Source of the DNA: a virus
Lineage: Duplodnaviria > Heunggongvirae > Uroviricota > Caudoviricetes
Virus record (IMG/VR): IMGVR_UViG_2711768056_000004
Location: 1-13,804 of that record
DNA length: 13,804 bases
Reading direction: 5' to 3' (one strand)
The first letter of the stretch is position 1, and every line of letters begins with the position of its first letter. The notes beneath the pieces are model-generated. The model saw only the letters and a list, made by a program, of their open reading frames with translations, did no database searches and was not told the origin of the DNA. A program made the position numbers and the translations under genes. Of this stretch, positions 1-13,803 are shown piece by piece.

Positions 1-14
1 TGCAGGGGACACCA
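1..14 (+). tRNA. argW: 3' terminal fragment of a tRNA-Arg gene (argW-like), truncated by the window start; presumed prophage attL core
   Basis: The window opens with TGCAGGGGACACCA, which reads as T-stem 3' half + acceptor 3' strand + discriminator + CCA. It matches my recollection of the 3' end of enterobacterial tRNA-Arg(CCU) argW, and a P4-type integrase follows directly, as in the argW-intS arrangement. Only 14 nt are visible, so the cloverleaf cannot be folded. Confidence 0.5.
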
Positions 15-1333: not shown

Positions 1334-1466
1334 TCGACCTTAACCACTATCGAATGTCACAAAGCCTTGTGTATCTCAGTTTTGTCTCATCAACCACAGC
1401 AAGTCATCGATCGATTGATGCTTGGATGATAGACTTCATGCCTTTGATTATTAGCTGATAGAAGAA
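1334..1466 (+). promoter_or_regulatory. int-gtrA intergenic region; presumed gtr operon promoter/regulatory region
   Basis: 133-bp non-coding gap upstream of gtrA containing a perfect 10-bp palindrome ATCGATCGAT (1406..1415) with an embedded GATC. No convincing sigma70 -35/-10 pair could be assigned by eye. Confidence 0.3.
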
Positions 1467-1829
1467 ATGTTAAAGCTATTTGCAAAGTACACCTCGATTG
1501 GTGTGCTGAACACACTTATACATTGGGTGGTTTTTGGTGTATGTATCTATGCCGCGCACACCAATCAGGCTCTTGCAAACTTCGCAGGTTTCGTTGTGGC
1601 TGTGAGCTTTAGCTTCTTCGCGAATGCAAAATTCACATTCAAAGCTTCGACTACAACGATGCGCTACATGTTATATGTAGGATTCATGGGAACACTGAGT
1701 GCTACTGTTGGATGGGCTGCCGATAAATGTGCACTTCCTCCAATTGTCACTCTTGTCACCTTCTCCGCCATCAGCCTAGTGTGCGGTTTCGTCTATTCAA
1801 AGTTCATTGTCTTTAGGGATGCGAAATGA
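1467..1829 (+). CDS. gtrA: GtrA-family bactoprenol-linked glucose translocase (flippase), O-antigen glucosylation
   Basis: 120-aa small hydrophobic protein with four predicted TM segments ([73 protein letters not shown]). Size and sequence are typical of GtrA. Stop overlaps the gtrB start (ATGA at 1826..1829). Confidence 0.9.
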
Positions 1830-2755
1830 AGATATCTCTGGTCGTTCCTGTCTTCAACGAAGAGGAAGCGATACCTATTTTTTATAAAACGGTACGTGAA
1901 TTCGAAGAGTTGAAGCCATATGAAGTGGAAATTGTTTTTATAAATGATGGTAGCAAAGACGCTACGGAGTCAATCATTAACGCTCTGTCCGTTTCAGATC
2001 CTCTAGTTGTTCCGCTGTCATTTACACGAAACTTTGGTAAAGAACCAGCCCTGTTTGCAGGGCTTGATAATGCAACCGGGGAAGCGGTCATTCCAATTGA
2101 TGTTGATCTGCAAGACCCTATCAATGTCATCCCTCACCTCATTCAAAAATGGCAGGATGGCGCTGATATGGTTCTGGCTAAGAGAACAGACCGATCTACC
2201 GATGGAAGGCTAAAGCGCAAATCGGCTGAGTGGTTCTATAAGCTACACAACAAGATTAGCAACCCAAAAATCGAAGAGAACGTGGGTGATTTTCGCCTGA
2301 TGTCGCGAGAAGTTGTTGAAAACATTAAATTGCTTCCTGAGCGCAATCTTTTCATGAAAGGCGTCTTGTCATGGGTTGGCGGTAAAATTGATGTTGTTGA
2401 GTATGCAAGAGCTGAACGCGTTGCCGGCAACTCAAAATTCAATGGGTGGAAGCTATGGAATCTGGCACTGGAAGGCATAACAAGCTTCTCAACTTTCCCA
2501 TTGCGCATGTGGACATACATCGGACTTGCTGTCGCCAGCCTGTCATTCATTTATGGCGCGTGGATGATTTTAGATAAGATTCTTTTCGGTAATAGTGTTC
2601 CTGGATACCCGTCACTGTTGGTTTCCATACTTTTCCTTGGCGGCATTCAATTGATTGGGATTGGTGTCCTTGGTGAATACATTGGACGCATATACATAGA
2701 AACCAAAAAAAGACCAAAGTACATACTAAAGAAAGGTGAAAATAGGAATGTTTAA
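1826..2755 (+). CDS. gtrB: GtrB-family bactoprenol (undecaprenyl-phosphate) glucosyltransferase, GT2
   Basis: 309 aa. N-terminal GT-A/GT2 catalytic domain ([23 protein letters not shown]-type motif [10 protein letters not shown]) followed by two C-terminal TM helices ([21 protein letters not shown]; [25 protein letters not shown]). Translationally coupled to gtrA. Confidence 0.92.
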
Positions 2756-4163
2756 TTCTAAATATTTTTACATACCATTATCAATTATATTTATATTTTG
2801 TTACCCAATAGTGTCTGCTGATGTCCTTTATAGGGATGATGTGGCAAGGTCTGTATATTCATTTTCTGCATGGGGAGGGCTTGGTAGGCCACTTTCTGAT
2901 TTTGTAATGCATATTTTTTCTCTTAATTTTGATTTATTACCAAGCGCTGCTCCTCTTCCGTTGTTCTTTGGTATATTCATTGCATCAGCAATAATTTATT
3001 ATATTTGTAATTATCTTGTTGAAAAAGAAGACTCTCTGCAGATATCCATTATGCTCACAATCATTTTTGTGAGTCCATTGTTTATACAAAACGTGTCTTT
3101 TCAATTTGACGCATTAACGATGATTTTAGCAAATTCATTATGTATGCTGTCATTCTTTGTATTTGACATTAGATCATTTCCAAAGTCATTATTATCCATT
3201 GTTTCTTTATTTTCATGCTTAAGCTTATACCAGCCTTGCGCAAACATATTTATATCATTAATTGCATACAATGCTTTATTTGGTAATGGGAAAAACAAAT
3301 CATATCATCTTGCACTGACATTCGTAGTAACATATGCATTATATTATGTCACTATGTTTTATATAATGAAATATGGTGCTGACAATAGATCTATAATGGT
3401 GTCATTCGCAGACATACCATCATCTCTTTATGAATCTATTAATAAGACTTTTAAATATATAGAACCCATTGGGATATCTTTTTTGATTCCTGTTTACATT
3501 GGATTGTTATCCTATTTTGTTTGTTATGTTAAAAAGGTCAAACATCAGTTATCCCTAGGGTTTTTAGAGTGCTCATCCAATTTATTATCACCATTAGCGC
3601 TATTATTAGCATTGCCTGGACCAGCATTTTTATTAAAGGAAGGGATTACAGATATAAGGGTTCTATCAGGCGCGTCAGCATCCATAGCGATAGTTATTTT
3701 TTCCATATATAAATTATTCGGAAAAAAATCTTTTTATTTTATTTCTGTAGTAATGTTGTTTATCACCATAACCACTTCATTCCAATTTTCAAATGCCATA
3801 AAAGAGCAAAGGAAATATGAGGAATTTGTCATGGAGATGGTGGCTAATGATTTGGGAAGGCTTGACTTTAACGGCGAGGTATACACTTATGGAAGGATAT
3901 ACGACTCTCCTATTACTTGGAAAATGATTGAGGCAACACCGTTCCTCAAATTTGTGTATAGCCCTGCTGTACCATGGATTGCTGTATCAATGATGCAGCA
4001 ATTAAGTGTTAAGAATTTGGCACCATGGATAAAAACAGTACAAGTTAACAAGTTAAATGAGGTTTGTGAAAAAAAATCATCACCAATAATAAAAACAAGA
4101 TATTATAATGTATTTAAAATTGGTGAAGATATTATCGTCGTGTATGGCGATAGAGTTTGTTAA
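2748..4163 (+). CDS. gtrC: Serotype-specific O-antigen glucosyltransferase (third gene of gtr operon, GtrC / Gtr-type); polytopic membrane protein, specificity undetermined
   Basis: 471 aa from ATG 2748, with AAGGTGA 8 nt upstream; the ORF track starts at in-frame GTG 2736. Overlaps the gtrB 3' end. Highly hydrophobic multi-pass protein with a less hydrophobic C-terminal ~100 aa. Strongly AT-rich compared with gtrB and the late genes, as is typical for the horizontally exchanged type-specific gtr gene. Confidence 0.8.
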
Positions 4164-4173
4164 AATTAAAAAA

Positions 4174-4198
4174 GGCCCAAAACATCGGGCCATTTTTT
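4174..4198. terminator. Bidirectional rho-independent terminator between the convergent gtr operon and tailspike gene
   Basis: Hairpin GGCCC (4174..4178), 8-nt loop, GGGCC (4187..4191), flanked by an A-run (4168..4173) and a T-run (4193..4198). Lies 11 nt after the gtrC stop and overlaps the tailspike stop codon. Confidence 0.7.
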
Positions 4199-6065
4199 AT
4201 GTGTAGTTAGCAATAAGTCTGCAAAACCATTGAGTGCCGCCGTTTATTGTTGAAAGCCTAAATACCTGCGTTCCTGAAAATGAAAGCGACGGTGTATTTG
4301 ATGCAAGTTTAACGTTAGACCCGAATGTTATTGTTTTTGATGCCGCCGAATAAACAGCTAATGTAACTTCTACATACCCAGTTAACGCATTTGACAATGC
4401 TGCTGGGGTTATTGTTACATCGCCAGTTACCGTTGCTGACACATACGCTGCATTAGAAAAGTCAGGCGCATACGATGCACCGGGGGTGTCAAATTTCGGA
4501 GACGCTACAAGCAGGGGAACACCTACGCTTCTCCTAAAAATTGTGCTATTGCTAAACATATCGTACTCTATCCCAACAAAGTTCTTAGCTGCCAGGATGT
4601 TTGTAAACGACTGGTCTATAGAGTAAATATGGTTTATCAACCTTGCTGTCCATGCTGGTGAGTTTGAGTTTCCACACTCAACAAATGAGCAGTTAACGCT
4701 ACCAACGGCAAACGGCATTAATGATGCAGTGTAAGAAGACAGTCCCGCAGCATTGAATGCATTCATATTCACGAATGTCTGACATTGAGAAAACGTATTA
4801 CCCGATGCTCCCGAATCGACAAAGAAACCAATACCGCCGTTAATATAACCATCTACCGAATCTAAATTAGCCTTCGTGTAGTCCCATTTTGACGGAGAGT
4901 CTGCAAAGCATTGGTTGAATGAGTTGTTTATCGAGTTTTGCACAACAAAGCAACACTTCATTCTTGAGTTTTGGTCAGCTACCGAGTCGTCATACATACC
5001 CCAGTTATGTACTTTATCGATACGATTGTTACCGCCACCCCTCACCCACGTCCCAAATCGGAAATAACGACCTTCACCCATGCTTACCTGATGGTCGCTG
5101 CCTTCAATAATATGGGCTTGACTTAGGGGGTTCGTAGGTTTTAATACACCTACCGCGTAAAACTTCATGAGATGAACACCCATGCCGCCAGCGATATGAA
5201 TGCCATGACCATCAACGTTGGCTACGTAAATACCATCTAACTTGTTGGCATAACCATCAGATATTTTAAATCCATTAACAGTCTTTGCGCGGGCGTCAAT
5301 TAAAAGATTGCTAATGTGCCCAGCGTATTGATTACCTGTTCCTTTATCGCATTTAACAGCATACCCAGAAGAATCCGCTATGAAGTCATCCGTGAGATAT
5401 ACCCCTCCAAATTCTGCATCTATGCTTACATCACCGTAAACATGTAATGTTGTGTTTATGGGGTATTTCTTTCCATTTAATCTGACAACTTTGCATACAG
5501 TATTTGGTTGTATCCAGTCTGGATGACCAGCAGCAGTGCTTGGGGAGTGCTCTAGCCCGGTTAAAGATGCGGCATAATCAATCGCATCCTGTAATGTTGT
5601 ATACATATCAGGATTGACGAATATAACATTTTTTAGCGTACCCCCAACCGTATCATCTGCGTAATCAACTGATTTATCGAATCCAACTAATCCAGCGCCA
5701 TTGCTCCCTTCAAGCTGTTGCCTTAACTGATCTGGGTCGTATTTTGCAATGTCAGGGAAGTAGAACTGCTGCGATCCATAGGCGTCGTAAACAGCCATGC
5801 TGTAATTCTGCACAGTAACGAACTTTGATATCTGCCCGTTGTAAACAGGATACCCACCCGCGTTAATGACTATCGGCTGAGCAGTTGGAATCAGATCTCC
5901 AGTTTCACTTTCAATATAAACAGGGATTTGGTTCGCTGGGATTGTAGGATCGGTATCTGGTAGCCCAAGATAGATTTTACCGTTGGCATTTGCTTTAAAT
6001 GAGCGTGCCAGCGTGAAAAGCTGCGAAGGCATCCCTACCACTAAGTTTGCGGTGATATCTGACAT
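4197..6065 (-). CDS. Tailspike protein (P22 gp9-like N-terminal head-binding domain fused to a divergent receptor-binding/O-antigen-depolymerase domain)
   Basis: 622 aa from the ATG at 6065, which has GGAG 7 nt upstream on the - strand. N-terminus [52 protein letters not shown]...VINAGG..VYNGQ...YDPDQ closely matches the remembered P22 tailspike head-binding domain. The remaining ~500 aa show no resemblance to the P22 catalytic domain. The ORF track's 638-aa version adds 16 codons that I consider non-coding. Confidence 0.88.
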
Positions 6066-6153
6066 TTCATTGCTCCAGACGAATGATATGATGCAACCAT
6101 GATGTGATTGCATACAGAAATGGTACTATTGAGTATTTATCCAGTAGGTTACG
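6066..6153. promoter_or_regulatory. Divergent tailspike / mnt intergenic control region with candidate operator
   Basis: 88-bp gap between divergent starts. Inverted repeat ATGCAA (6091..6096) - N11 - TTGCAT (6108..6113), plus direct repeat TGATnTGAT at 6083..6091 and 6101..6109. Positioned like the P22 immI Pant/Pmnt operator region, but operator identity is inferred. Confidence 0.4.
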
Positions 6154-6453
6154 ATGCCATTCCACCCAACTGGTGAGGCATCAAGGATGTACAGCAAATA
6201 CGACGAGGCGCAGTTTCACTTGAGACTTCCGCATGAACTCCACGAGAAAATTAAACAGCGTGCGAAGATGAATAACAGGTCGCTGAACTCAGAGATAATT
6301 GCAGCGATTGAAGAATCATTGAATAAACAAAGCTCTGCATCAGTTTGCATTGACGATGCAGATCGTATGGCAGAACAACAATCTGATATGGTTAAGAAAA
6401 TGGTTTTTGAAACGCTTAAGACCATGTATAGCAATAATAAAAAGGAAACATAG
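6154..6453 (+). CDS. mnt: Mnt-like ribbon-helix-helix (Arc/MetJ family) transcriptional repressor
   Basis: Translation FHLRLPHELHEKIKQRAKMNNRSLNSEIIAAIEESL...DADRMAEQQSDMVKKMVFETLKTMY aligns along its length with remembered P22 Mnt (FNFRMPMEVREKLKFRAEANGRSMNSELLQIVQDAL...DAERLADEQSELVKKMVFDTLKDLY). Start is ambiguous: ATG 6154 gives 99 aa, ATG 6187 gives 88 aa, closer to the 83-aa Mnt. Confidence 0.8.
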   Translation: MPFHPTGEASRMYSKYDEAQFHLRLPHELHEKIKQRAKMNNRSLNSEIIAAIEESLNKQSSASVCIDDADRMAEQQSDMVKKMVFETLKTMYSNNKKET

Positions 6454-6523
6454 AAATCTAGTTTCCGGCTAAAATGGCATTGCTTTCATGATATCCTGTG
6501 AAAAACTAAGGAGAGTTAACCAT

Positions 6524-7009
6524 ATGAAAAAATCACTGTTAATTATCCCGCTTCTGCTGGTTGGATGCGCAAAAGTAAGTGACTATCAAGCAAGTTGCGA
6601 ACAACGCTATCAAAAGCTTAGCGATATGGCTAATTGCCTTGATGCCAGAGTGAAGAACGACTCACGCATGGCATCAGCACCAACACCTAAGCTATATGTC
6701 CTTGCTGCAAAGATGCTCGGGCAAGGTGTCGATGAAGGCAAGATAAGTGACGCACAGGCAAGACTTGAGCTTCAGAATCTTTATGTTCAATTACAAAGCC
6801 AAGAACAAGCCCAACAAATAGCACAAAGCCAAGCATTCCAGCAGGCTTTATTGAATTATCAGGCTGTAAACACAATGCAAGCGATCGAGCAAAAAGCGCG
6901 CCAGCCTGTTATAACTCAACCTTACCCAACGCGTGTTGACACCTATACAAACTGCAATTCAGGATTTGGAAATACCGTCACATGCAACAGTAGCAGCAAC
7001 ATTAGATAA
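6524..7009 (+). CDS. Predicted lipoprotein with Q-rich coiled-coil-like segment and Cys/Asn/Ser-rich C-terminus; function unknown (moron; candidate superinfection-exclusion factor)
   Basis: 161 aa from ATG 6524, with AAGGAG at 6508..6513. The ORF track's upstream start at 6488 adds 12 residues before the signal peptide. MKKSLLIIPLLLVGC is a signal peptide with a lipobox (LVGC). Followed by a Q/A-rich stretch (LQNLYVQLQSQEQAQQIAQSQAFQQALLNYQ) and tail TYTNCNSGFGNTVTCNSSSNIR. Co-oriented 70 bp downstream of mnt. Confidence 0.6.
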   Translation: MKKSLLIIPLLLVGCAKVSDYQASCEQRYQKLSDMANCLDARVKNDSRMASAPTPKLYVLAAKMLGQGVDEGKISDAQARLELQNLYVQLQSQEQAQQIAQSQAFQQALLNYQAVNTMQAIEQKARQPVITQPYPTRVDTYTNCNSGFGNTVTCNSSSNIR

Positions 7010-7011
7010 AG

Positions 7012-9126
7012 CTATTCATATTCATTCATACCGCTTAACGAGGCGACAATACCAGCTCTCGACAAGCGATTGAATTCATCGCTACCAATAGCATCGCGTA
7101 TTGCTTTTACGGCGGCCTTATTTGCCATAAATCTGCGTTCCGCCGCCGCTAATGCTTCTTTGCTTCCGCCTGCTCTTACTGCTTTGGTGGCTTCCTGAAC
7201 AGCTTTCTCTATCGCATATCGACCACTACGTGTGGTGGCAATTTTAGATACAGCGCCTTTTAACCCAGCGCCAACTAAAGCACCCGCGGCAGCGCCTGCA
7301 ATACCCCCTCCAGCGCCACCAACAATGGCACCTGATGTTGAGTTGGCAATTGCATTTAACACTGTTGATGTGACGTTGGATAAACCAGCATCCAGATCGC
7401 GTAGTACATTGGCAGTTCTCCCTGTTCTTTCAATATACTGCTGAGGTTTCACTGCCGCTCTTGCAAGAGTGCCATATGCATCAGCAATTCTTCCAAGTTC
7501 TGAGGAATATCTGCTAATGGCTTTTACATTTTGTGGGGTAAGTATCCCTGCGATATGGTTAATTCCTGCTGCATCAGATTTGCCACCACGTACACCATGC
7601 GAGATAGCATCCTGCAACATTGATGATATAGCAGGAACACGCTCTGATTCTGGCAGCGCGCGGATCATAGAATGGAATCCAGCAGGACCATTAAGACCTT
7701 TAGCTGACGATGATTGAAGAGATTTTACTCCATTCGTAATCAGTGCATCTGTTGCCAAATCACGCCCAAAAACAGACTCTGCACTCTCTTGTGCGGATAG
7801 CCTCGCTTTAGACAGATCATTAGCTTTTTGCCAGTCATCAAAAAATCCGCCGTTTTCCGCCATTGTGCGCATATCATCAGTAATTGCCCGACGTATTTCC
7901 CCTGCTCTCCTTGCCGCATTTGCCTCTCCACTACGCTTATATTTTTGCTCCGCATCAGCAAATTTCGCTCTCCATGCTTTCATGCCATCAAATGTTACTC
8001 CACCTTGATTGTTTGCCTGAACAAACTGTTTCATTTCAGGAGTAAGCGGTATGCCAGCAGATCGCTCTGCCTGAATAACGGCATTACCATTTAGCATTCT
8101 TGCTTTTTGATTTGGCATTGTTGACCGCACGTCATCCCATGCCGCGCGCTCAGCATCCTTCATCTGATCAAGATTTTGAAGAATCCTTTGTTTTATAGCC
8201 GCACTTTTTTCTGATGCCGTTCCAGATGCGGCCCCAAATTCATCAAGGTTTCGACTTAACTTTGATGATATTTCGTTAAATGCTGCCTGATGGGCATCCT
8301 GAACAATCCCTGGTGTTGATGCCAATGCGCCTTCGGCTTGTGCAATTCCACGACTTCCAGATCGCATTCCTGGTGTTAATGCGTTTATATCAATTCCAGC
8401 AGACTCAGCCGCTTTTGCTACATCTTCGGACACATTAGCGGCCTGACTGGCAATTGACTGACGCCCAGCACCTGACTTTGCCATCCTGGAAACATCATTA
8501 GCAGAATTCAGTGCTGCACCACCAAGAGCCTGTGAAACCCTTGGCGCAATAACGCGCCCGACACCTGAAAGAACGCCTTGAGCACCAATATTGATACCAC
8601 CGTTAATGGCAGCATTTTGTGCAAAATCACCCTCCTGATTTGCAGCATCAGCAAGAGAACCGGCAATCATGTTTCCTGCGGAACCGATGTCTCCTGCGAG
8701 CTTTGCTGGCGCTCCAGCAGCTTTTGCTGCTGTGCCAATTGGCAGGAGATACCCACCAATTGTTTCACCGGCTTGCGCGTAAGGGTCTGTCGGTCGATCG
8801 ACTGGACGATAGACATCATCCAAAACCTTGGGGCCACCAAGCCCATGGCTGATTGCATTAATCAGACTTGCGCCACCCTGCAATACGTCAAATGGTATGT
8901 TTACCAGACCACGGCCAGCCTGTTCTGCAATTTGCCCTGCGCTTTGACCACCAGTGAGCCAGTCAGTGGCTTTTCCTACCAGAGATTGTTCTTCTGGCTG
9001 CGATTGGTTTTGAGTGGATTGATCACCAGAAGACAGCATCTGAGCAATGCGACGTGCTCCCTCAGTATCGCCGGCAGCATCAGCATTTCTTAACGCCGTC
9101 ATCAACTGTTCGCGACTATAGGCCAT
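7012..9126 (-). CDS. Ejection (DNA-transfer / E) protein, P22 gp16-like by position
   Basis: 704-aa ORF, last gene of the late block before the immI-like cassette, in the position of P22 gene 16. Low-complexity Gly/Ala-rich hydrophobic segment near the C-terminus ([27 protein letters not shown]). Start overlaps the upstream gene stop as TAATG. Assignment rests mainly on synteny and size. Confidence 0.65.
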
Positions 9127-10400
9127 TACTGCCCTCCGAGATATTTATTAATCAGGTCATCATCAGAAAGCTGCTGTTGAGACGGTTGTATGTCCTTCCC
9201 GTATTTCTGTTGCATACGTTTCTGAGCCATCTCAGTGGTTTTTATGATTGTTTTGATAGCTGCTCTGGCTGATTTTTCAGACTGATTTGGGGACAAACTA
9301 CCAATAGCATCCATTACCTTTTGCCCCTCGGCATTACTTAAAGCCCCCATCCCTTTCATCTGCTGAATGCCAGATAAGAATCCCTGAGATTTCAGTGTGT
9401 CAACCAGAGTTTCTGTATCAGCAGCCTCTGTTCCTGGAATGAATCTACTCGATAGTGGGTTTAGGTTTGTTCCGAAATATCCCGTGAATCCTGGGCTATT
9501 AAGAACTTTTGTAGCCGTCTCTATCGTTCTGGAAAGATTATCCATTCCAGAGTTGTACGCATCAGCCTTATCTCGCTTTGCCTGCTCCATAGCTTGCTGA
9601 TTCTGCAATCTCTTGTCCTGCAATTCAGCAAGTTTTAAGGCATTAGTTTCATTTGCGATGAGTCTGTCGTATTTCTTGTCCTCTAATTCCATTCGACGAA
9701 GATTGACATTTTGTTGCGCAATATTGTTGCTTGCCCACCCTCTGGCATTTGTCATGTCATTATTGCGGATTGTTTCGTTAATTCTTTGCTGCTCCTGCTG
9801 GCGACCAACCATCTTATCCTGATAATCCAGCATTTTATCCGGACCAACAGCCCCTAGCGTCATAGTAGTCAGCATGTGTGATAGCTGCTCTGGATTCTGG
9901 ATGCCTGTCTGAATCATCCAGTCAGCATTCGCACCCACGCGATTTAACCTGTCCTTGTTGTCAGTAATGAATTTACTGTAGGCTTCCGGTCCCTGAGAAA
10001 GAGCGACGTTAGCCCTCATGGCTAAATCGCCCATATCGTTGCGTTGCTGCTCATTAAGACCGGAAAACGCCTGTTGTGCCTGCGCAACAAACGCTGGATT
10101 TTCCTGGGCAAACTTAAAGAGTCCCGATGGATCACCAGAAGCCCATGCATCAGCGTGAACCTTATTGAACGCACTAATAGCTTTCTGTTGCTGTTCCTGA
10201 TTGTAAATATCAGCAACTCCAGCCAGACCACGTAACGCGGTCAGACCAACGTTATTTGCACCTGAGCGAGCCAGTTCATTGTTTTCGCGGATCAGACCAA
10301 GCGTTGCGTTAATGTCGCTTGCCTTTGGCGCATTCTCATTTTGCGTACCGATGCCAGCCAGAAAACCACCAGAATTAATACCCTGTTGCCACGTAGCCAT
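9126..10400 (-). CDS. Ejection (DNA-transfer / E) protein, P22 gp20-like by position
   Basis: 424-aa Q/N-rich ORF between the gp7-like and gp16-like genes, in the position of P22 gene 20. Assignment by synteny and size. Confidence 0.65.
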
Positions 10401-10410
10401 TGATTACCCC

Positions 10411-11103
10411 TTAAAACAACGAGCCAAGCAGACCAAGACCGCCGCCGATCGCAGCCCCCCACGGAGTTGATGAACCAATTAATTTCGCAAGTCCGGCCCC
10501 AGCAATAGCACCAGACGCACCTCCGCCAATAGCAGATTGCATTGCTGATGGTCTGTTGGCATTTGCCGCTGCAAGAGCCGCACTTTGCTGCGAAATCTGA
10601 CTCATGTTGTTGGCATATGTCTGCCCGGCGTTTGCCTGACCTTGCAGTGCGCCAAGACCAATATTTGCCAGATTCTGGTAGTTGTTCATCTGACCAGATA
10701 GCCATTGCTGACCAAGCGTTGGTGCGATTGTTGCTAACTGATTACTGGTTGCTGTGGAACCTAATCCACCCGTTGCTTCCGCTGCCGCCAGACTCTGATA
10801 GCGAGCCTGACCAGCAAGATCTTTGTACTGCTGAGAGTTGTAATACTGGTTAAGTGCCTGACCTTGCCCTTCCAGAGACGATAAGTTCTCGAGGCTGCCG
10901 ACATACTTATCAGCCAGAGGAGTAAACGGCTTAAGGTTGTTCATGATGGTGTTGAACTGCTGATTTTGCAGGTCTGCGGCATACTTCTGAGCTTCTGCTG
11001 CATACTTTGCGCTTTTATCAGAGCTACCACCTTTCCCGCCTTTTTCAGGGCACCAAGGTTCCTCGCCGCGCAGTTTTCTGCCCAGCTTAAATGCATATAA
11101 CAT
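10411..11103 (-). CDS. Ejection (DNA-transfer / E) protein, P22 gp7-like
   Basis: 230 aa. N-terminus MLYAFKLGRKLRGEEP, then a Q/N-rich body and a Gly-rich hydrophobic C-terminus (AIGGGASGAIAGAGLAKLIGSSTPWGAAIGGGLGLLGSLF). Size and position between gene-14-like and gene-20-like genes match P22 gp7. Confidence 0.72.
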   Translation of the reverse strand: MLYAFKLGRKLRGEEPWCPEKGGKGGSSDKSAKYAAEAQKYAADLQNQQFNTIMNNLKPFTPLADKYVGSLENLSSLEGQGQALNQYYNSQQYKDLAGQARYQSLAAAEATGGLGSTATSNQLATIAPTLGQQWLSGQMNNYQNLANIGLGALQGQANAGQTYANNMSQISQQSAALAAANANRPSAMQSAIGGGASGAIAGAGLAKLIGSSTPWGAAIGGGLGLLGSLF

Positions 11104-11105
11104 GG

Positions 11106-11561
11106 CTATCTCCTGTGATTCAGGAAGTCGATTAGTTCTTCGCGTGTGGCGCTGTAAAACGTCACGTCATCCACGCCTTTGAAGTATTTCTTGATGGTTC
11201 CTACACGCTTAAGGCCAATCATTGCGCAGTACATCTGCCCGTGGCGGAATTTGCGTGCAGCAAATGATGTGACGCACTGAACGGTGGTGTTAGTCAGAAT
11301 GTATCGCCAGAACGCCAGCCCGATTTCCTTGCTGAAGCCGCGAATCTCTGGCAGGTACATGGCGTGGCAATCGAATGTAAGCGGCTGAATCTCCTGATAG
11401 TAAACAATGCCGCCGAACTGCCCGTGCACGTTCACCTCAAAGTAACGGCAATCAGGTTTGTAGTCGTATCCATCACCGTTGTTGCTCCCGGCAATAATGT
11501 CAGGGTGATTTCCGACTGCTTCGATCAGGTCGATGTTTCGCGTTGGTTTGAACTGAATCAT
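11106..11561 (-). CDS. Virion assembly/ejection-associated protein, P22 gp14-like by position
   Basis: 151-aa ORF between the tail-needle and gp7-like genes. Start overlaps the needle gene stop (TAATG). Assignment by synteny only. Confidence 0.6.
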   Translation of the reverse strand: MIQFKPTRNIDLIEAVGNHPDIIAGSNNGDGYDYKPDCRYFEVNVHGQFGGIVYYQEIQPLTFDCHAMYLPEIRGFSKEIGLAFWRYILTNTTVQCVTSFAARKFRHGQMYCAMIGLKRVGTIKKYFKGVDDVTFYSATREELIDFLNHRR

Positions 11562-12409
11562 TACTGCTCCGCGATTATCTTGATGGTTGTGGCAGTAAAC
11601 GCCGCACCATTTGACTGAATGGTTAACGTGCTGCCATTTGTGGCAAGAAAGCCGTCTTTATCCACGCTGAAGAACGTAGCTAACAGGATGTTGTCGGTTG
11701 TTGTCGCCGCATTACGACTGCTTACCAGTGTGTCAGGAACAGAGCCGGAAAATGTTAGTTGCATTGACCTGTTGGCGGTTCCACTGGGCCACGTCCCGAC
11801 GATCGACAGCTTGAAGAACAAGGTTTTGTTCTCGTTGAACACAACCATCTTGTTGTTAGCAGTGTCGAAGAATGGTGCCAACGTCCCGGATGACGGCGTG
11901 AGCGTTTTCAGCAGGCTAACAAGGTTGGTCGGCGCTGTCGGGATGGTTACTGATACGCCAGAGTAAACAACCTCTGACTTCTTGCGCGTAGTGGTATACT
12001 CCAGAGCATCGATGCGCGTTTCATGGTCTGAAAACTGCGACTCCAGCGACTGAACTCTGGTATCAAGCGACGCAATATCGCTTTCATTCTGAGCGATTCG
12101 CGTTTCATGTTCCTGAAGAGTTGATTCTGCCTGGCTGATTCGCTCCTCATGATTAACAAGCGTTGCTTCCGCAGCAGAAATTCGCTGCTCATGGTCAGCG
12201 AGAATCACATCCTGCTCATCGTTCCTGACTTGTGCGTCATAAGCGCCCTGTCCGGCCTCGTTGGCCTTGTTAGCCACATTACCAACATCAGTACCCTGTG
12301 CAATAACGTACAGCAGATATGACTGCGAGAAGATATTGCGTGGAAGGATTGATGTATCGAGCCGCGTCGCCTGAACAATAACAGGTGTATTGAGATTCGA
12401 ATCCGCCAT
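11561..12409 (-). CDS. Tail needle (plug) protein, P22 gp26-like N-terminal domain and coiled coil with an extended C-terminal domain
   Basis: 282 aa. N-terminus [68 protein letters not shown] matches remembered P22 gp26. Followed by heptad-like repeats ([66 protein letters not shown]) and a ~140-aa non-coiled-coil C-terminal domain. Confidence 0.9.
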
Positions 12410-13803
12410 TACTCAATCCTTATCTGGCAGCCAGACAGAGTGACAGGTGACTTCGTGATAACGCGCAATTTGAAGCCGACATTTTTCCTGATTCGCCCGA
12501 CACGCTTCCACAAAACGCGTTTGTCGTAAACGAACGGTTCATTCTGCTCAATCATCTGCTCACGCCCGTAATTGATGCCGTCAGTGGTTGCAGAGAGAAA
12601 AAGGCGGTCAGCATACTGCGCAACGCCAGTTGAAGATTCAACTTCAAGGTCGAAAACTCTGGCGTTATCTGCTTTGAACAACGGAGTAAACAGCAGGTGT
12701 TCCTGCTGCTTGTCGTACTGGCTGCTGATATCGAACTGCAATTTCCCGGTCACGGATTCCAGCTTATCGCCGCACGTTATCTGATTGCCTTCGTAAATGA
12801 AGTCGATAGCGCGGTACACATCGTCATACAAGCCAGTTTTCAGTACGCACCATTGCGGACCATTGGCGCTTGAAGATGCGTCGTAAACGAGAACATGGCG
12901 CGCAAGATGGATAATCAGCAGCTCATGCGCATCAAATCGCAGAGACTCCATCACACCATCAGCCAGTTCATCAGCAGTGTAGGAGCGGAGAATTTTCTCA
13001 ATGCTCGCGCTGGCGATTGGTGACACCTGACCGGAGCCGATGATGTATACAGACGGCGCACCCGTTGCCGGATTGCTGATGAACGCATACGAATCAGCGA
13101 ATGGCGTTTTGCAGTAAGTCCCGGCAATGCCTTTCTGCACCATCAGTGATGGCTGTGCGACATACAAAGCAGCACCAACGGTGGTTGCACCAGTCAGGGA
13201 GAAATATTCAATCGTCGATGAACCAAAGCAGACGATGAAGTCTCGCCATGTACCTATGCCGATGATGCCGTCCGGCTGTGATTCTGCGCGGTATTGTGCG
13301 CTGTAACGGTCAGGATGCGATTCGTCTTCAAGGTCAGTGATAAACCATGAATCCGTGCCGTCTTTTGACCACGCATAACGCCCACGTAAGCGTGTAATGT
13401 CGCGGACTGAACCTAACTCATACTGAGTGAATCCACTGTCTGTAGGCCAGTTTGAGACGGTTTTAACCGTACCATCATAGCGATACTCGACCAGTTGACC
13501 ATTAACGCCTACCGCCTGTGATGTCCGACCATGCGCCATTGATACGCGACCACTTCCGGCAACATCGCCGACTTCACTTTCTCCTTTGTAGAGCTTGCCA
13601 CCACACACGCGATAAACAGCACTCTGCGCCATGTTGTACTCAACTCCGCGCGATACACCGTTCACATCAGAACGTTTGGCAATGCCCGGGAATGAGCGAA
13701 GATATCCGCTGCTGTTCAGGATTTCTTTGGGTGTAGCCAACATATTCGCTGGCAGATAGTCGATATAGTCGGCGTTTCGGAAATCTTTGCCGACACCTTT
13801 CAT
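12409..13803 (-). CDS. Tail accessory / head-completion protein, P22 gp10-like; 5' end at or just beyond the window edge
   Basis: 464 codons read from the ATG at 13801..13803 to the stop at 12409; the reading frame runs to the window edge. Lies immediately upstream of, and translationally coupled to, the needle gene as in P22 (10 then 26). The true start may be a few codons upstream outside the window. Confidence 0.78.

Follow-up and report, generated by a model that had tools for sequence, protein, structure and literature searches.

A P22-like Escherichia coli prophage tailspike with a mobile receptor-binding module that is linked to gtrC and probably directed at an O153/O178-type O-antigen

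The window analyzed here, which is the complete 13,804-bp contig CXXY01000031.1 (assembly GCA_001268925.1, taken in reverse orientation), comprises the right end of a P22-like prophage of the Lederbergvirus type at argW in Escherichia coli, and the gene under study encodes the tailspike of this prophage. The explanation that best accounts for our results as a whole, and one that we consider quite probable, is that the single tailspike of this argW prophage combines a P22-type virion anchor with a swapped-in, mobile receptor-binding module, that this module targets an O153/O178-type O-antigen, and that it forms a pair with the adjacent GtrABC system. We refer to the receptor-binding module, residues ~128 to 622 of the tailspike, as RBD-A. 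In itself, the gene is an ordinary but cleanly documented case of known phage modularity.

Results

A P22-type anchor joined to an unrelated receptor module

The N-terminal part of the tailspike is a virion anchor of the P22 type. Residues 1 to 113 cover the entire Pfam model Head_binding (PF09008, model positions 1 to 113 of 113; E value of 3.1e-56; 188.9 bits against a cutoff of 24), and in a phmmer search of all PDB sequences, residues 1 to 117 aligned with Sf6 gp14 (E value of 2.3e-49) and residues 1 to 115 with the P22 tailspike (E value of 1.3e-38). The ungapped identity of this domain amounts to 70 of 114 positions (61%) with P22 gp9 and to 82 of 117 (70%) with Sf6 gp14, which bears out the proposal of a first-pass annotation of this DNA that the N-terminal ~110 amino acids are a P22 gp9-type domain. 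Beyond residue ~117, the search returned no match to any PDB sequence at an E value of ≤1, and no Pfam family other than Head_binding was found in the tailspike, including none for the C-terminal part of the P22 tailspike. The annotation had also held the rest of the protein to be unrelated to the P22 endorhamnosidase; indeed, the alignment to P22 stops at residue 115, and identity to gp9 over the full length is excluded. Since only the N-terminal residues align with P22 and Sf6, the protein is chimeric relative to P22.

At the DNA level, the region from position 5710 through the start of the gene and beyond is 97.8 to 98.8% identical to argW prophages with a different receptor domain. The blastn breakpoint lies at 5710 against the argW prophage of Ec-U18, which belongs to a type B whose receptor module we call RBD-B, at 5755 against the argW prophage of FHI_NMBU_03, and at 5684 against both the TST3 prophage and a Kuttervirus phage. 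In the alignment of RBD-A relatives, the common region begins at about residues 118 to 123. These comparisons identify the short linker at residues ~116 to 127 as the recombination junction.

RBD-A occurs on different anchors

Among 50,697 phage records searched with tblastn, residues 114 to 621 recurred at 82 to 84% amino acid identity, over ~500 residues, in four large virulent phages: Kuttervirus vB_SalM-ps4, where the match lies in the 992-amino-acid first spike of a four-spike cluster, the Aglimvirinae phage YX22, Agtrevirus vB_CECAV_050, and BME3. In the three Ackermannviridae (ps4, YX22, and vB_CECAV_050), RBD-A makes up the C-terminal ~500 amino acids of spikes of 992 to 1,003 amino acids, and this spike is the largest tailspike of each phage. 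By the gene order of CBA120, the spike presumably occupies the TSP4 slot. The N-terminal anchors of the spikes in all four phages are entirely different from that of the window spike, with ~480 extra residues in the Ackermannviridae spikes. In BME3, a phi92-like phage that was assigned to Justusliebigvirus in its own paper, the spike with RBD-A is split. All four phages are myoviruses with several spikes each, and they have no adjacent gtr genes.

In a collection of 5.8 billion proteins, 27 matched RBD-A at 58 to 100% identity. In most of these, Head_binding is replaced by a PF18668 (TSP1/gp66-type) anchor, and identity to the differently anchored proteins ranges from 58 to 90% at 96 to 100% coverage. 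When 1.84 billion cluster representatives were scanned exhaustively with HMMER, 34 matched at an E value of ≤1e-3, only four of them closely; the RBD-A family is small. Strain TST3 encodes, directly downstream of TipJ, a 638-amino-acid protein with 87% identity over residues 114 to 622, and its prophage has TipJ host-specificity and tape-measure genes (siphovirus type). In strain 2017.15.01CC, a 720-amino-acid protein with 78% identity to RBD-A adjoins an acyltransferase gene in yet another prophage, whose spike N terminus and gene context look epsilon15/Uetakevirus-like in our reading. With the P22-type anchor, the siphovirus-type prophage with TipJ and tape-measure genes, the epsilon15/Uetakevirus-like context, the largest Ackermannviridae spike, and the PF18668 type, RBD-A is a horizontally mobile cassette found on at least five different anchors, and its close relatives in lytic phages indicate that it is not an orphan. 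A search of the PDB with an alignment profile of the RBD-A family matched only the N-terminal anchors of other members, not RBD-A.

The window allele of RBD-A is itself a mosaic: residues 241 to 330 are identical to lytic-phage alleles and not to the nearest prophage allele, and residues 511 to 600 are nearest to a third allele. In two patches (residues ~240 to 330 and ~510 to 600, within window positions 4197 to 5705), identity to the allele of strain MLI106K1 falls to 67 to 77%, and in both of them the window matches PF18668-anchored alleles, probably from lytic phages, exactly or nearly. A separate observation concerns 2017.15.01CC (L017, 5437 to 6585), in which the partner of the RBD-A spike is a gene of the acyltransferase family and not gtrABC; there, RBD-A may go together with another chemistry of O-antigen modification.

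RBD-A and gtrC change together

Pfam matches to GtrA, GtrB, and GtrC lie in a row between the integrase and the tailspike, in synteny with annotated yfdG/yfdH genes, as expected from the gtrABC cassette named in the first-pass annotation. In the 5,426 complete E. coli genomes that served for all counts of gtrC, RBD-A, and wzy, gtrC of the window type was present in only four, and in all four it lies directly beside RBD-A. On six independent contigs with the identical tailspike, GtrC is identical at 470 or 471 of 471 residues. In a comparison of argW prophages (Table 1), a switch of receptor-domain type went along with a switch of gtrC type, against a background of int, gtrA, and gtrB that are never less than 89% identical.

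Table 1. Amino acid identity of prophage products to those of the window
Prophage	int	gtrA	gtrB	gtrC	Receptor module
MLI106K1	99.5%	95.8%	93.9%	98.5%	89.5%
Ec-U18 (type B)	99.0%	96.7%	93.9%	49.3%	23.1%
FHI_NMBU_03	98.7%	98.3%	89.3%	28.3%	18.8%

DNA similarity to the type-B prophage is absent between positions 3267 and 5709, and similarity to the third prophage type (FHI_NMBU_03) is absent between 2735 and 5754. The only block common to the window and the TST3 prophage spans positions 1407 to 5684 (~4.3 kb), that is, gtrA-gtrB-gtrC plus RBD-A, and stops at tailspike residue ~127. Because the block shared with TST3 is limited to gtrABC and RBD-A, the module and the receptor-modifying genes travel together, and temperate phages have RBD-A in physical linkage with a gene for O-antigen modification, gtrC in the present case. 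On these comparative grounds, the earlier suggestion that tailspike and gtr genes act as a pair gains support, in that this gtrC type always adjoins RBD-A and the two vary jointly.

The two gtrC types of O153/O178 prophages agree at 76% of their first 50 residues and at 22 to 62% over the remainder. DNA similarity between the types ends at about codon 173 (2748 to 3266 versus 3267 to 4163), which places one recombination boundary of the cassette inside gtrC.

An O153/O178-type O-antigen is the most likely receptor

The co-occurrence of wzy with RBD-A, the layout of the O-antigen cluster, the kinship of RBD-B with a characterized tailspike, the motifs shared by RBD-A and RBD-B, and what looks like a scar of module replacement together suggest an O153/O178-type O-antigen as the most likely receptor of RBD-A. 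The O-antigen cluster of MLI106K1 contains gnu upstream of galF, three glycosyltransferase genes, wzy, and wzx, with no sugar-synthesis genes, and thereby fits the layout described for the O153/O178 clusters, with gnu upstream of galF and few glycosyltransferases (PMC7685785). Its wzy recurs at 99.8 to 100% identity in 80 of the 5,426 genomes. Against this background, at least eight of the nine complete genomes with RBD-A hold all or part of the wzy allele (TST3 has only half of the gene), and the same wzy is present in at least five of the six hosts of type-B argW prophages among the matches listed. The wzy-positive genomes include strain CE-O153H30 and Ec-CD45, of which the latter was typed O153:H7, with isolates of the same sequence type typed O178:H7 (PMC12521101).

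The type-B module provides a second line of evidence. RBD-B is 72% identical to TSP3 of Agtrevirus AV101 (WJJ54145.1), which, when purified, gave rise to translucent zones on lawns of O153 bacteria and was able to inhibit the infection of a strain of that serogroup (PMC10791037). RBD-A and RBD-B share ~23% global identity and are not full-length homologues, but they have a local match of 88 amino acids (34% identity; E value of 2e-4) that holds the invariant motifs H-x-W-G, DSP-x-K-x-D, and NGGI. Phage EcoIv28_Lewi encodes an intact type-B spike resembling AV101 TSP3 (L015, 5602 to 7452) and, immediately downstream, a 259-codon open reading frame (ORF; L015, 7475 to 8254) that consists of the last ~250 residues of RBD-A and corresponds to residues 373 to 622 of the window tailspike. 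This C-terminal ORF looks like the scar left when the module was replaced by the type-B domain.

Several points weigh against this assignment. The O153/O178 specificity rests on co-occurrence in partly clonal genomes, CFSAN061763 and CFSAN061768 being almost duplicates of each other. A contig of 13.8 kb does not reveal the serogroup of the window's own host, since in complete genomes the O-antigen cluster is ~360 kb distant. Of the phages with RBD-A, the Ackermannviridae and BME3 were isolated on Salmonella, an O2 avian pathogenic E. coli, or a K-12-type strain, although the isolation hosts of these lytic phages say nothing about that particular spike. Finally, the O-antigen cluster is inactivated by IS1 in two lysogens, MLI106K1 and TST3, so that present-day hosts need not display the receptor. 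In the literature on the host strains CFSAN061763 and MLI106K1 we found no serotype, and the papers on BME3 and related phages gave no specificity for the RBD-A spike.

The inactivated clusters, found in two of the four complete-genome lysogens with the gtrC/RBD-A cassette, differ in kind. In MLI106K1 (L013, 17144 to 19533), an IS1A element interrupts wzx; in TST3, IS1B has taken the place of the whole cluster between wcaM and gnd, with the half wzy ~650 kb away (L018, 9273 to 9970; NZ_CP154406.1, 1182984 to 1183594). The O-antigen may have been lost in these strains under phage pressure, or by chance.

The two lysogens without a working O-antigen cluster and the recorded, non-O153 hosts of the lytic phages would also suit a different target, namely another surface polysaccharide such as capsule, colanic acid, or enterobacterial common antigen, with the O153/O178 link reflecting shared host ancestry. 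Likewise, Pas et al. found that the host serogroups of many tailspike subtypes were inconsistent (PMC10408124). Still, we regard such a target as improbable, since hosts positive for wzy have been obtained from numerous sources and countries and RBD-A sits in three prophage types. In addition, RBD-A in temperate phages always adjoins an O-antigen modification gene, be it gtrC or an acyltransferase gene, and the RBD-A of Lewi was directly replaced by the O153-validated type-B domain, all of which argues for the O-antigen.

RBD-A is predicted to be a beta-helix followed by a beta-sandwich

The structure of the module was predicted with AlphaFold from residues 110 to 622 and 41 aligned sequences, distant relatives included (predicted local distance difference test [pLDDT] score of 85; predicted template modeling score of 0.70). 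This model replaced an initial prediction for the whole protein from 18 aligned sequences, whose pLDDT of 49 made it unusable. A first part with short helices (residues ~111 to 166) precedes a right-handed parallel beta-helix and a C-terminal beta-sandwich (Table 2), and RBD-A is thus predicted to have the usual build of a tailspike depolymerase. The monomer model thereby agrees with the beta-helix or depolymerase-like fold that the first-pass annotation had anticipated for the C-terminal part. In relatives down to 20% identity, the columns D324, H353, D389, and N409-G410-G411 (full-length numbering) are invariant, which makes D324, D389, and H353 candidate catalytic residues.

Sf6 and HK620 were among the top Foldseek matches to the RBD-A model. 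Together with the similar length of 622 versus 623 amino acids and the Sf6-type needle knob and terminase modules of related prophages, this could be taken as a sign that the tailspike is an Sf6- or P22-type endorhamnosidase that has diverged past recognition. We consider this extremely unlikely. Past residue 117, neither Sf6 nor P22 gave a match at an E value of ≤1 and no Pfam family of the P22 C-terminal part was hit, and both the Sf6-type and the P22-type endorhamnosidase readings were rejected on this phmmer result; template modeling (TM) scores are 0.3 to 0.47 at 10 to 14% identity. The O153 and O178 entries of a review, moreover, list Ribf, along with GlcNAc and GalNAc for O178, and neither is among the multi-rhamnose clusters (PMC7685785). 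The length of the protein, which had initially been noted as reminiscent of Sf6-type tailspikes, does not carry that meaning: the alignment with Sf6 is confined to residues 1 to 117, with a score of -3.6 bits for a second stretch, and the resemblance in fold is of a generic kind (TM score of 0.45 to 0.47 at 10 to 12% identity). The likeness in length is a coincidence.

The tailspike gene and its prophage context

The coordinates first given for the tailspike gene proved to be exact, and its strand, which had been left out, is minus (Table 2). A longer reading of the same ORF could begin at an ATG at position 6113. However, a Shine-Dalgarno sequence (GGAG, 7-nucleotide spacing) precedes the ATG at 6065, and the homologues are annotated in the 622-amino-acid form in RefSeq and in other gene calls, so that 6065 is taken as the start; the resulting N terminus agrees with that of Sf6 (MTDIITNVVIGMPSQLF). 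The identical 622-amino-acid tailspike is found on at least 24 contigs.

Table 2. Features of the 13,804-bp window
Feature	Position	Strand	Remarks
3' end of tRNA-Arg gene adjoining yfdC	1-14		
Integrase IntS, 385 amino acids	176-1333	+	Pfam integrase domains
gtrA, putative flippase	1467-1829	+	PF04138, E value of 2e-13
gtrB, bactoprenol glucosyltransferase (GT2)	1826-2755	+	PF00535, E value of 1.6e-30
gtrC, serotype-specific glucosyltransferase, 471 amino acids	2748-4163	+	PF14264, E value of 1e-21
Likely bidirectional terminator	4174-4191	both	GC-rich hairpin with T-runs on both strands, between convergent gtrC and tailspike; terminator-like sites
Tailspike coding sequence	4197-6065	minus	622 amino acids plus stop; ORF translation
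C-terminal beta-sandwich, residues ~523-622	4200-4499	minus	Predicted; confident in both AlphaFold2 runs
Predicted right-handed parallel beta-helix, residues ~190-495	4581-5498	minus	AlphaFold; many short beta-strands; holds the invariant residues
Junction/linker, residues ~116-127	5684-5720	minus	Similarity to other anchors and receptor domains switches here
Head-binding (virion anchor) domain, residues 1-115	5721-6065	minus	PF09008; alignment to P22 and Sf6
Arc/Mnt-type repressor, divergent from tailspike (immI-like region)	6154-6453	+	PF03869, PF11423
Lipoprotein-like ORF, 173 amino acids (161 in other annotations)	6488-7009	+	
gp16-like	7012-9126	minus	Pfam
gp20-like	9126-10400	minus	Pfam
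gp7-like	10411-11103	minus	Pfam
DUF2824	11106-11561	minus	Pfam
Sf6-type needle knob	11561-12409	minus	Pfam
gp10, runs off the window end	12409-13803	minus	Pfam

The prophage abuts the tRNA-Arg gene next to yfdC, which we take to be argW from what is known of E. coli K-12, and its IntS is 99.5% identical to the intS product adjoining the same tRNA-Arg gene in MLI106K1. The tailspike gene holds the position expected in a P22-type late region, after the gp10, needle, gp7, gp20, and gp16 genes and beside arc/mnt. Two stretches of the ejection genes (7009 to 8748 and 8965 to 9801, covering gp16-like and the start of gp20-like) have no DNA similarity to the otherwise closest prophage, that of MLI106K1; the same stretches are 95 to 97% identical to other argW prophages, a further instance of mosaicism in the late operon. 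The ORF at 6488 to 7009 had no Pfam match. The encoded protein is rich in Gln in its middle part and carries a signal sequence like that of a lipoprotein (MKKSLLIIPLLLVGC). Several P22-like prophages at argW conserve the gene in this place, flanked by arc/mnt and gp16, and its product could be a surface or exclusion protein expressed from the prophage.

On several contigs with the identical tailspike (L005, L006, and L007), the prophage looks truncated, with a needle or gp16 fragment abutting sucrose-utilization genes or a second integrase; even so, these contigs have kept tailspike, gtrABC, and int genes that encode identical proteins. The annotation of CFSAN061763 (L011) lists the spike as a pseudogene. 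Such cases raise the question of whether the tailspike is a leftover in a defective prophage, in which selection acts on gtrABC alone as a serotype-conversion module of the host. This seems unlikely to us, given that the ORF in the window is intact, with a Shine-Dalgarno sequence and a terminator, that the virion genes from gp10 to gp16 are intact as well, and that L003 and L004 show full late operons. Defectiveness would, in any case, leave the identity of the protein unchanged.

Discussion

By analogy with P22, Sf6, and HK620, the head-binding domain would fix the spike trimer to the tail hub. The beta-helix of RBD-A would then bind O153/O178-type O-antigen chains, allowing the virion to reach the outer membrane, and would probably cleave the O-antigen as an endoglycosidase, as suggested by the fold, the conserved acidic and His residues, and the distant homology to AV101 TSP3. 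After lysogeny, GtrA, GtrB, and GtrC might glucosylate the same O-unit in the periplasm, following the model of periplasmic GtrABC glucosylation summarized in PMC7685785, and the glucosylated O-antigen would reduce readsorption and superinfection by phages with the same spike.

In its architecture, the tailspike resembles P22 gp9, Sf6 gp14, and HK620 gp9, with a PF09008 anchor (61 to 70% identity to P22 and Sf6), a gene placed after the ejection-protein genes and beside arc/mnt, and the order anchor, linker, beta-helix, and C-terminal beta-sandwich, of which the last two are predicted here. A domain swap at the ...YDPDQ... boundary is what one classically sees in Lederbergvirus tailspikes. Unlike those of P22, Sf6, and HK620, however, the receptor module has no detectable sequence similarity to them, a fold likeness that is generic only, and a different predicted O-antigen target. 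With AV101 TSP3 and the type-B argW spikes, it shares the host serogroup cluster and the 88-amino-acid motif region with its invariant His, Asp, and NGG, and the type-B prophages occupy the same prophage position; the spikes differ in overall identity (~23%), and the type-B gtrC is only 49% identical. As in the gtrABC cassettes of P22, Shigella flexneri, and E. coli O77-group prophages, the order int-gtrA-gtrB-gtrC is found by the attachment site, with gtrA and gtrB conserved and gtrC variable (PMC7685785). In contrast to these known cassettes, the gtrC of the window and the receptor module are transferred jointly, as a single block, between prophages of the podovirus and siphovirus types.

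That two unrelated-looking pairs of receptor module and gtrC occur at the same prophage position and in the same serogroup also leaves room for a variant in which RBD-A recognizes not the plain polymer but a modified O153/O178 glycoform, for example one made by the other gtrC type, so that the pairs would be engaged in escape and pursuit. The combination of an intact type-B spike and a type-A remnant in Lewi would fit this variant, and so would the O153 and O178 clusters being near-identical, as Iguchi et al. reportedly grouped them. A figure of 99.9% for the identity of these clusters has been cited, and disputed (PMC4732683). AV101 TSP3 acts on ordinary O153 isolates, which speaks against this variant; we give it a small chance. 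With the same reserve, and as a long shot, one might speculate that RBD-A/gtrC-A and RBD-B/gtrC-B are alternative recognize-then-modify cassettes for one O153/O178 backbone, moved as units between podovirus-type, siphovirus-type, and other phages. Unrecognized gtrC glycoforms might then underlie the serological split between O153 and O178, and each spike might be tuned to the glycoform that the other pair makes or spares. We continue to favor an O153/O178-type O-antigen as such as the target of RBD-A.

Earlier work has described modular Lederbergvirus spikes, receptor modules that are exchanged with Ackermannviridae and further genera, prophage spikes linked to a serogroup, and genes for O-antigen modification located behind the spike (PMC10408124, PMC10791037, and PMC8432352). 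As domain-swapped P22-type spikes and adjacent gtr cassettes are textbook material, our results change no concept. What they add is modest: a probable serogroup, suggested by sequence comparison, for a receptor module that has neither a Pfam family nor a solved structure, and the finding of the gtrABC and RBD-A block both in a P22-type (podovirus) prophage and in one with siphovirus-type tail genes.

The carriers of RBD-A include Ackermannviridae and phi92-like phages that are under study for phage therapy or biocontrol. For phages with this module, the proposed receptor translates into a testable prediction of host range, and it would make RBD-A a candidate reagent for the detection of O153/O178. 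For the biology of these prophages, the window offers a clean natural case in which a receptor-binding module and what appears to be the matching receptor-modifying gene move jointly between unrelated prophage types.

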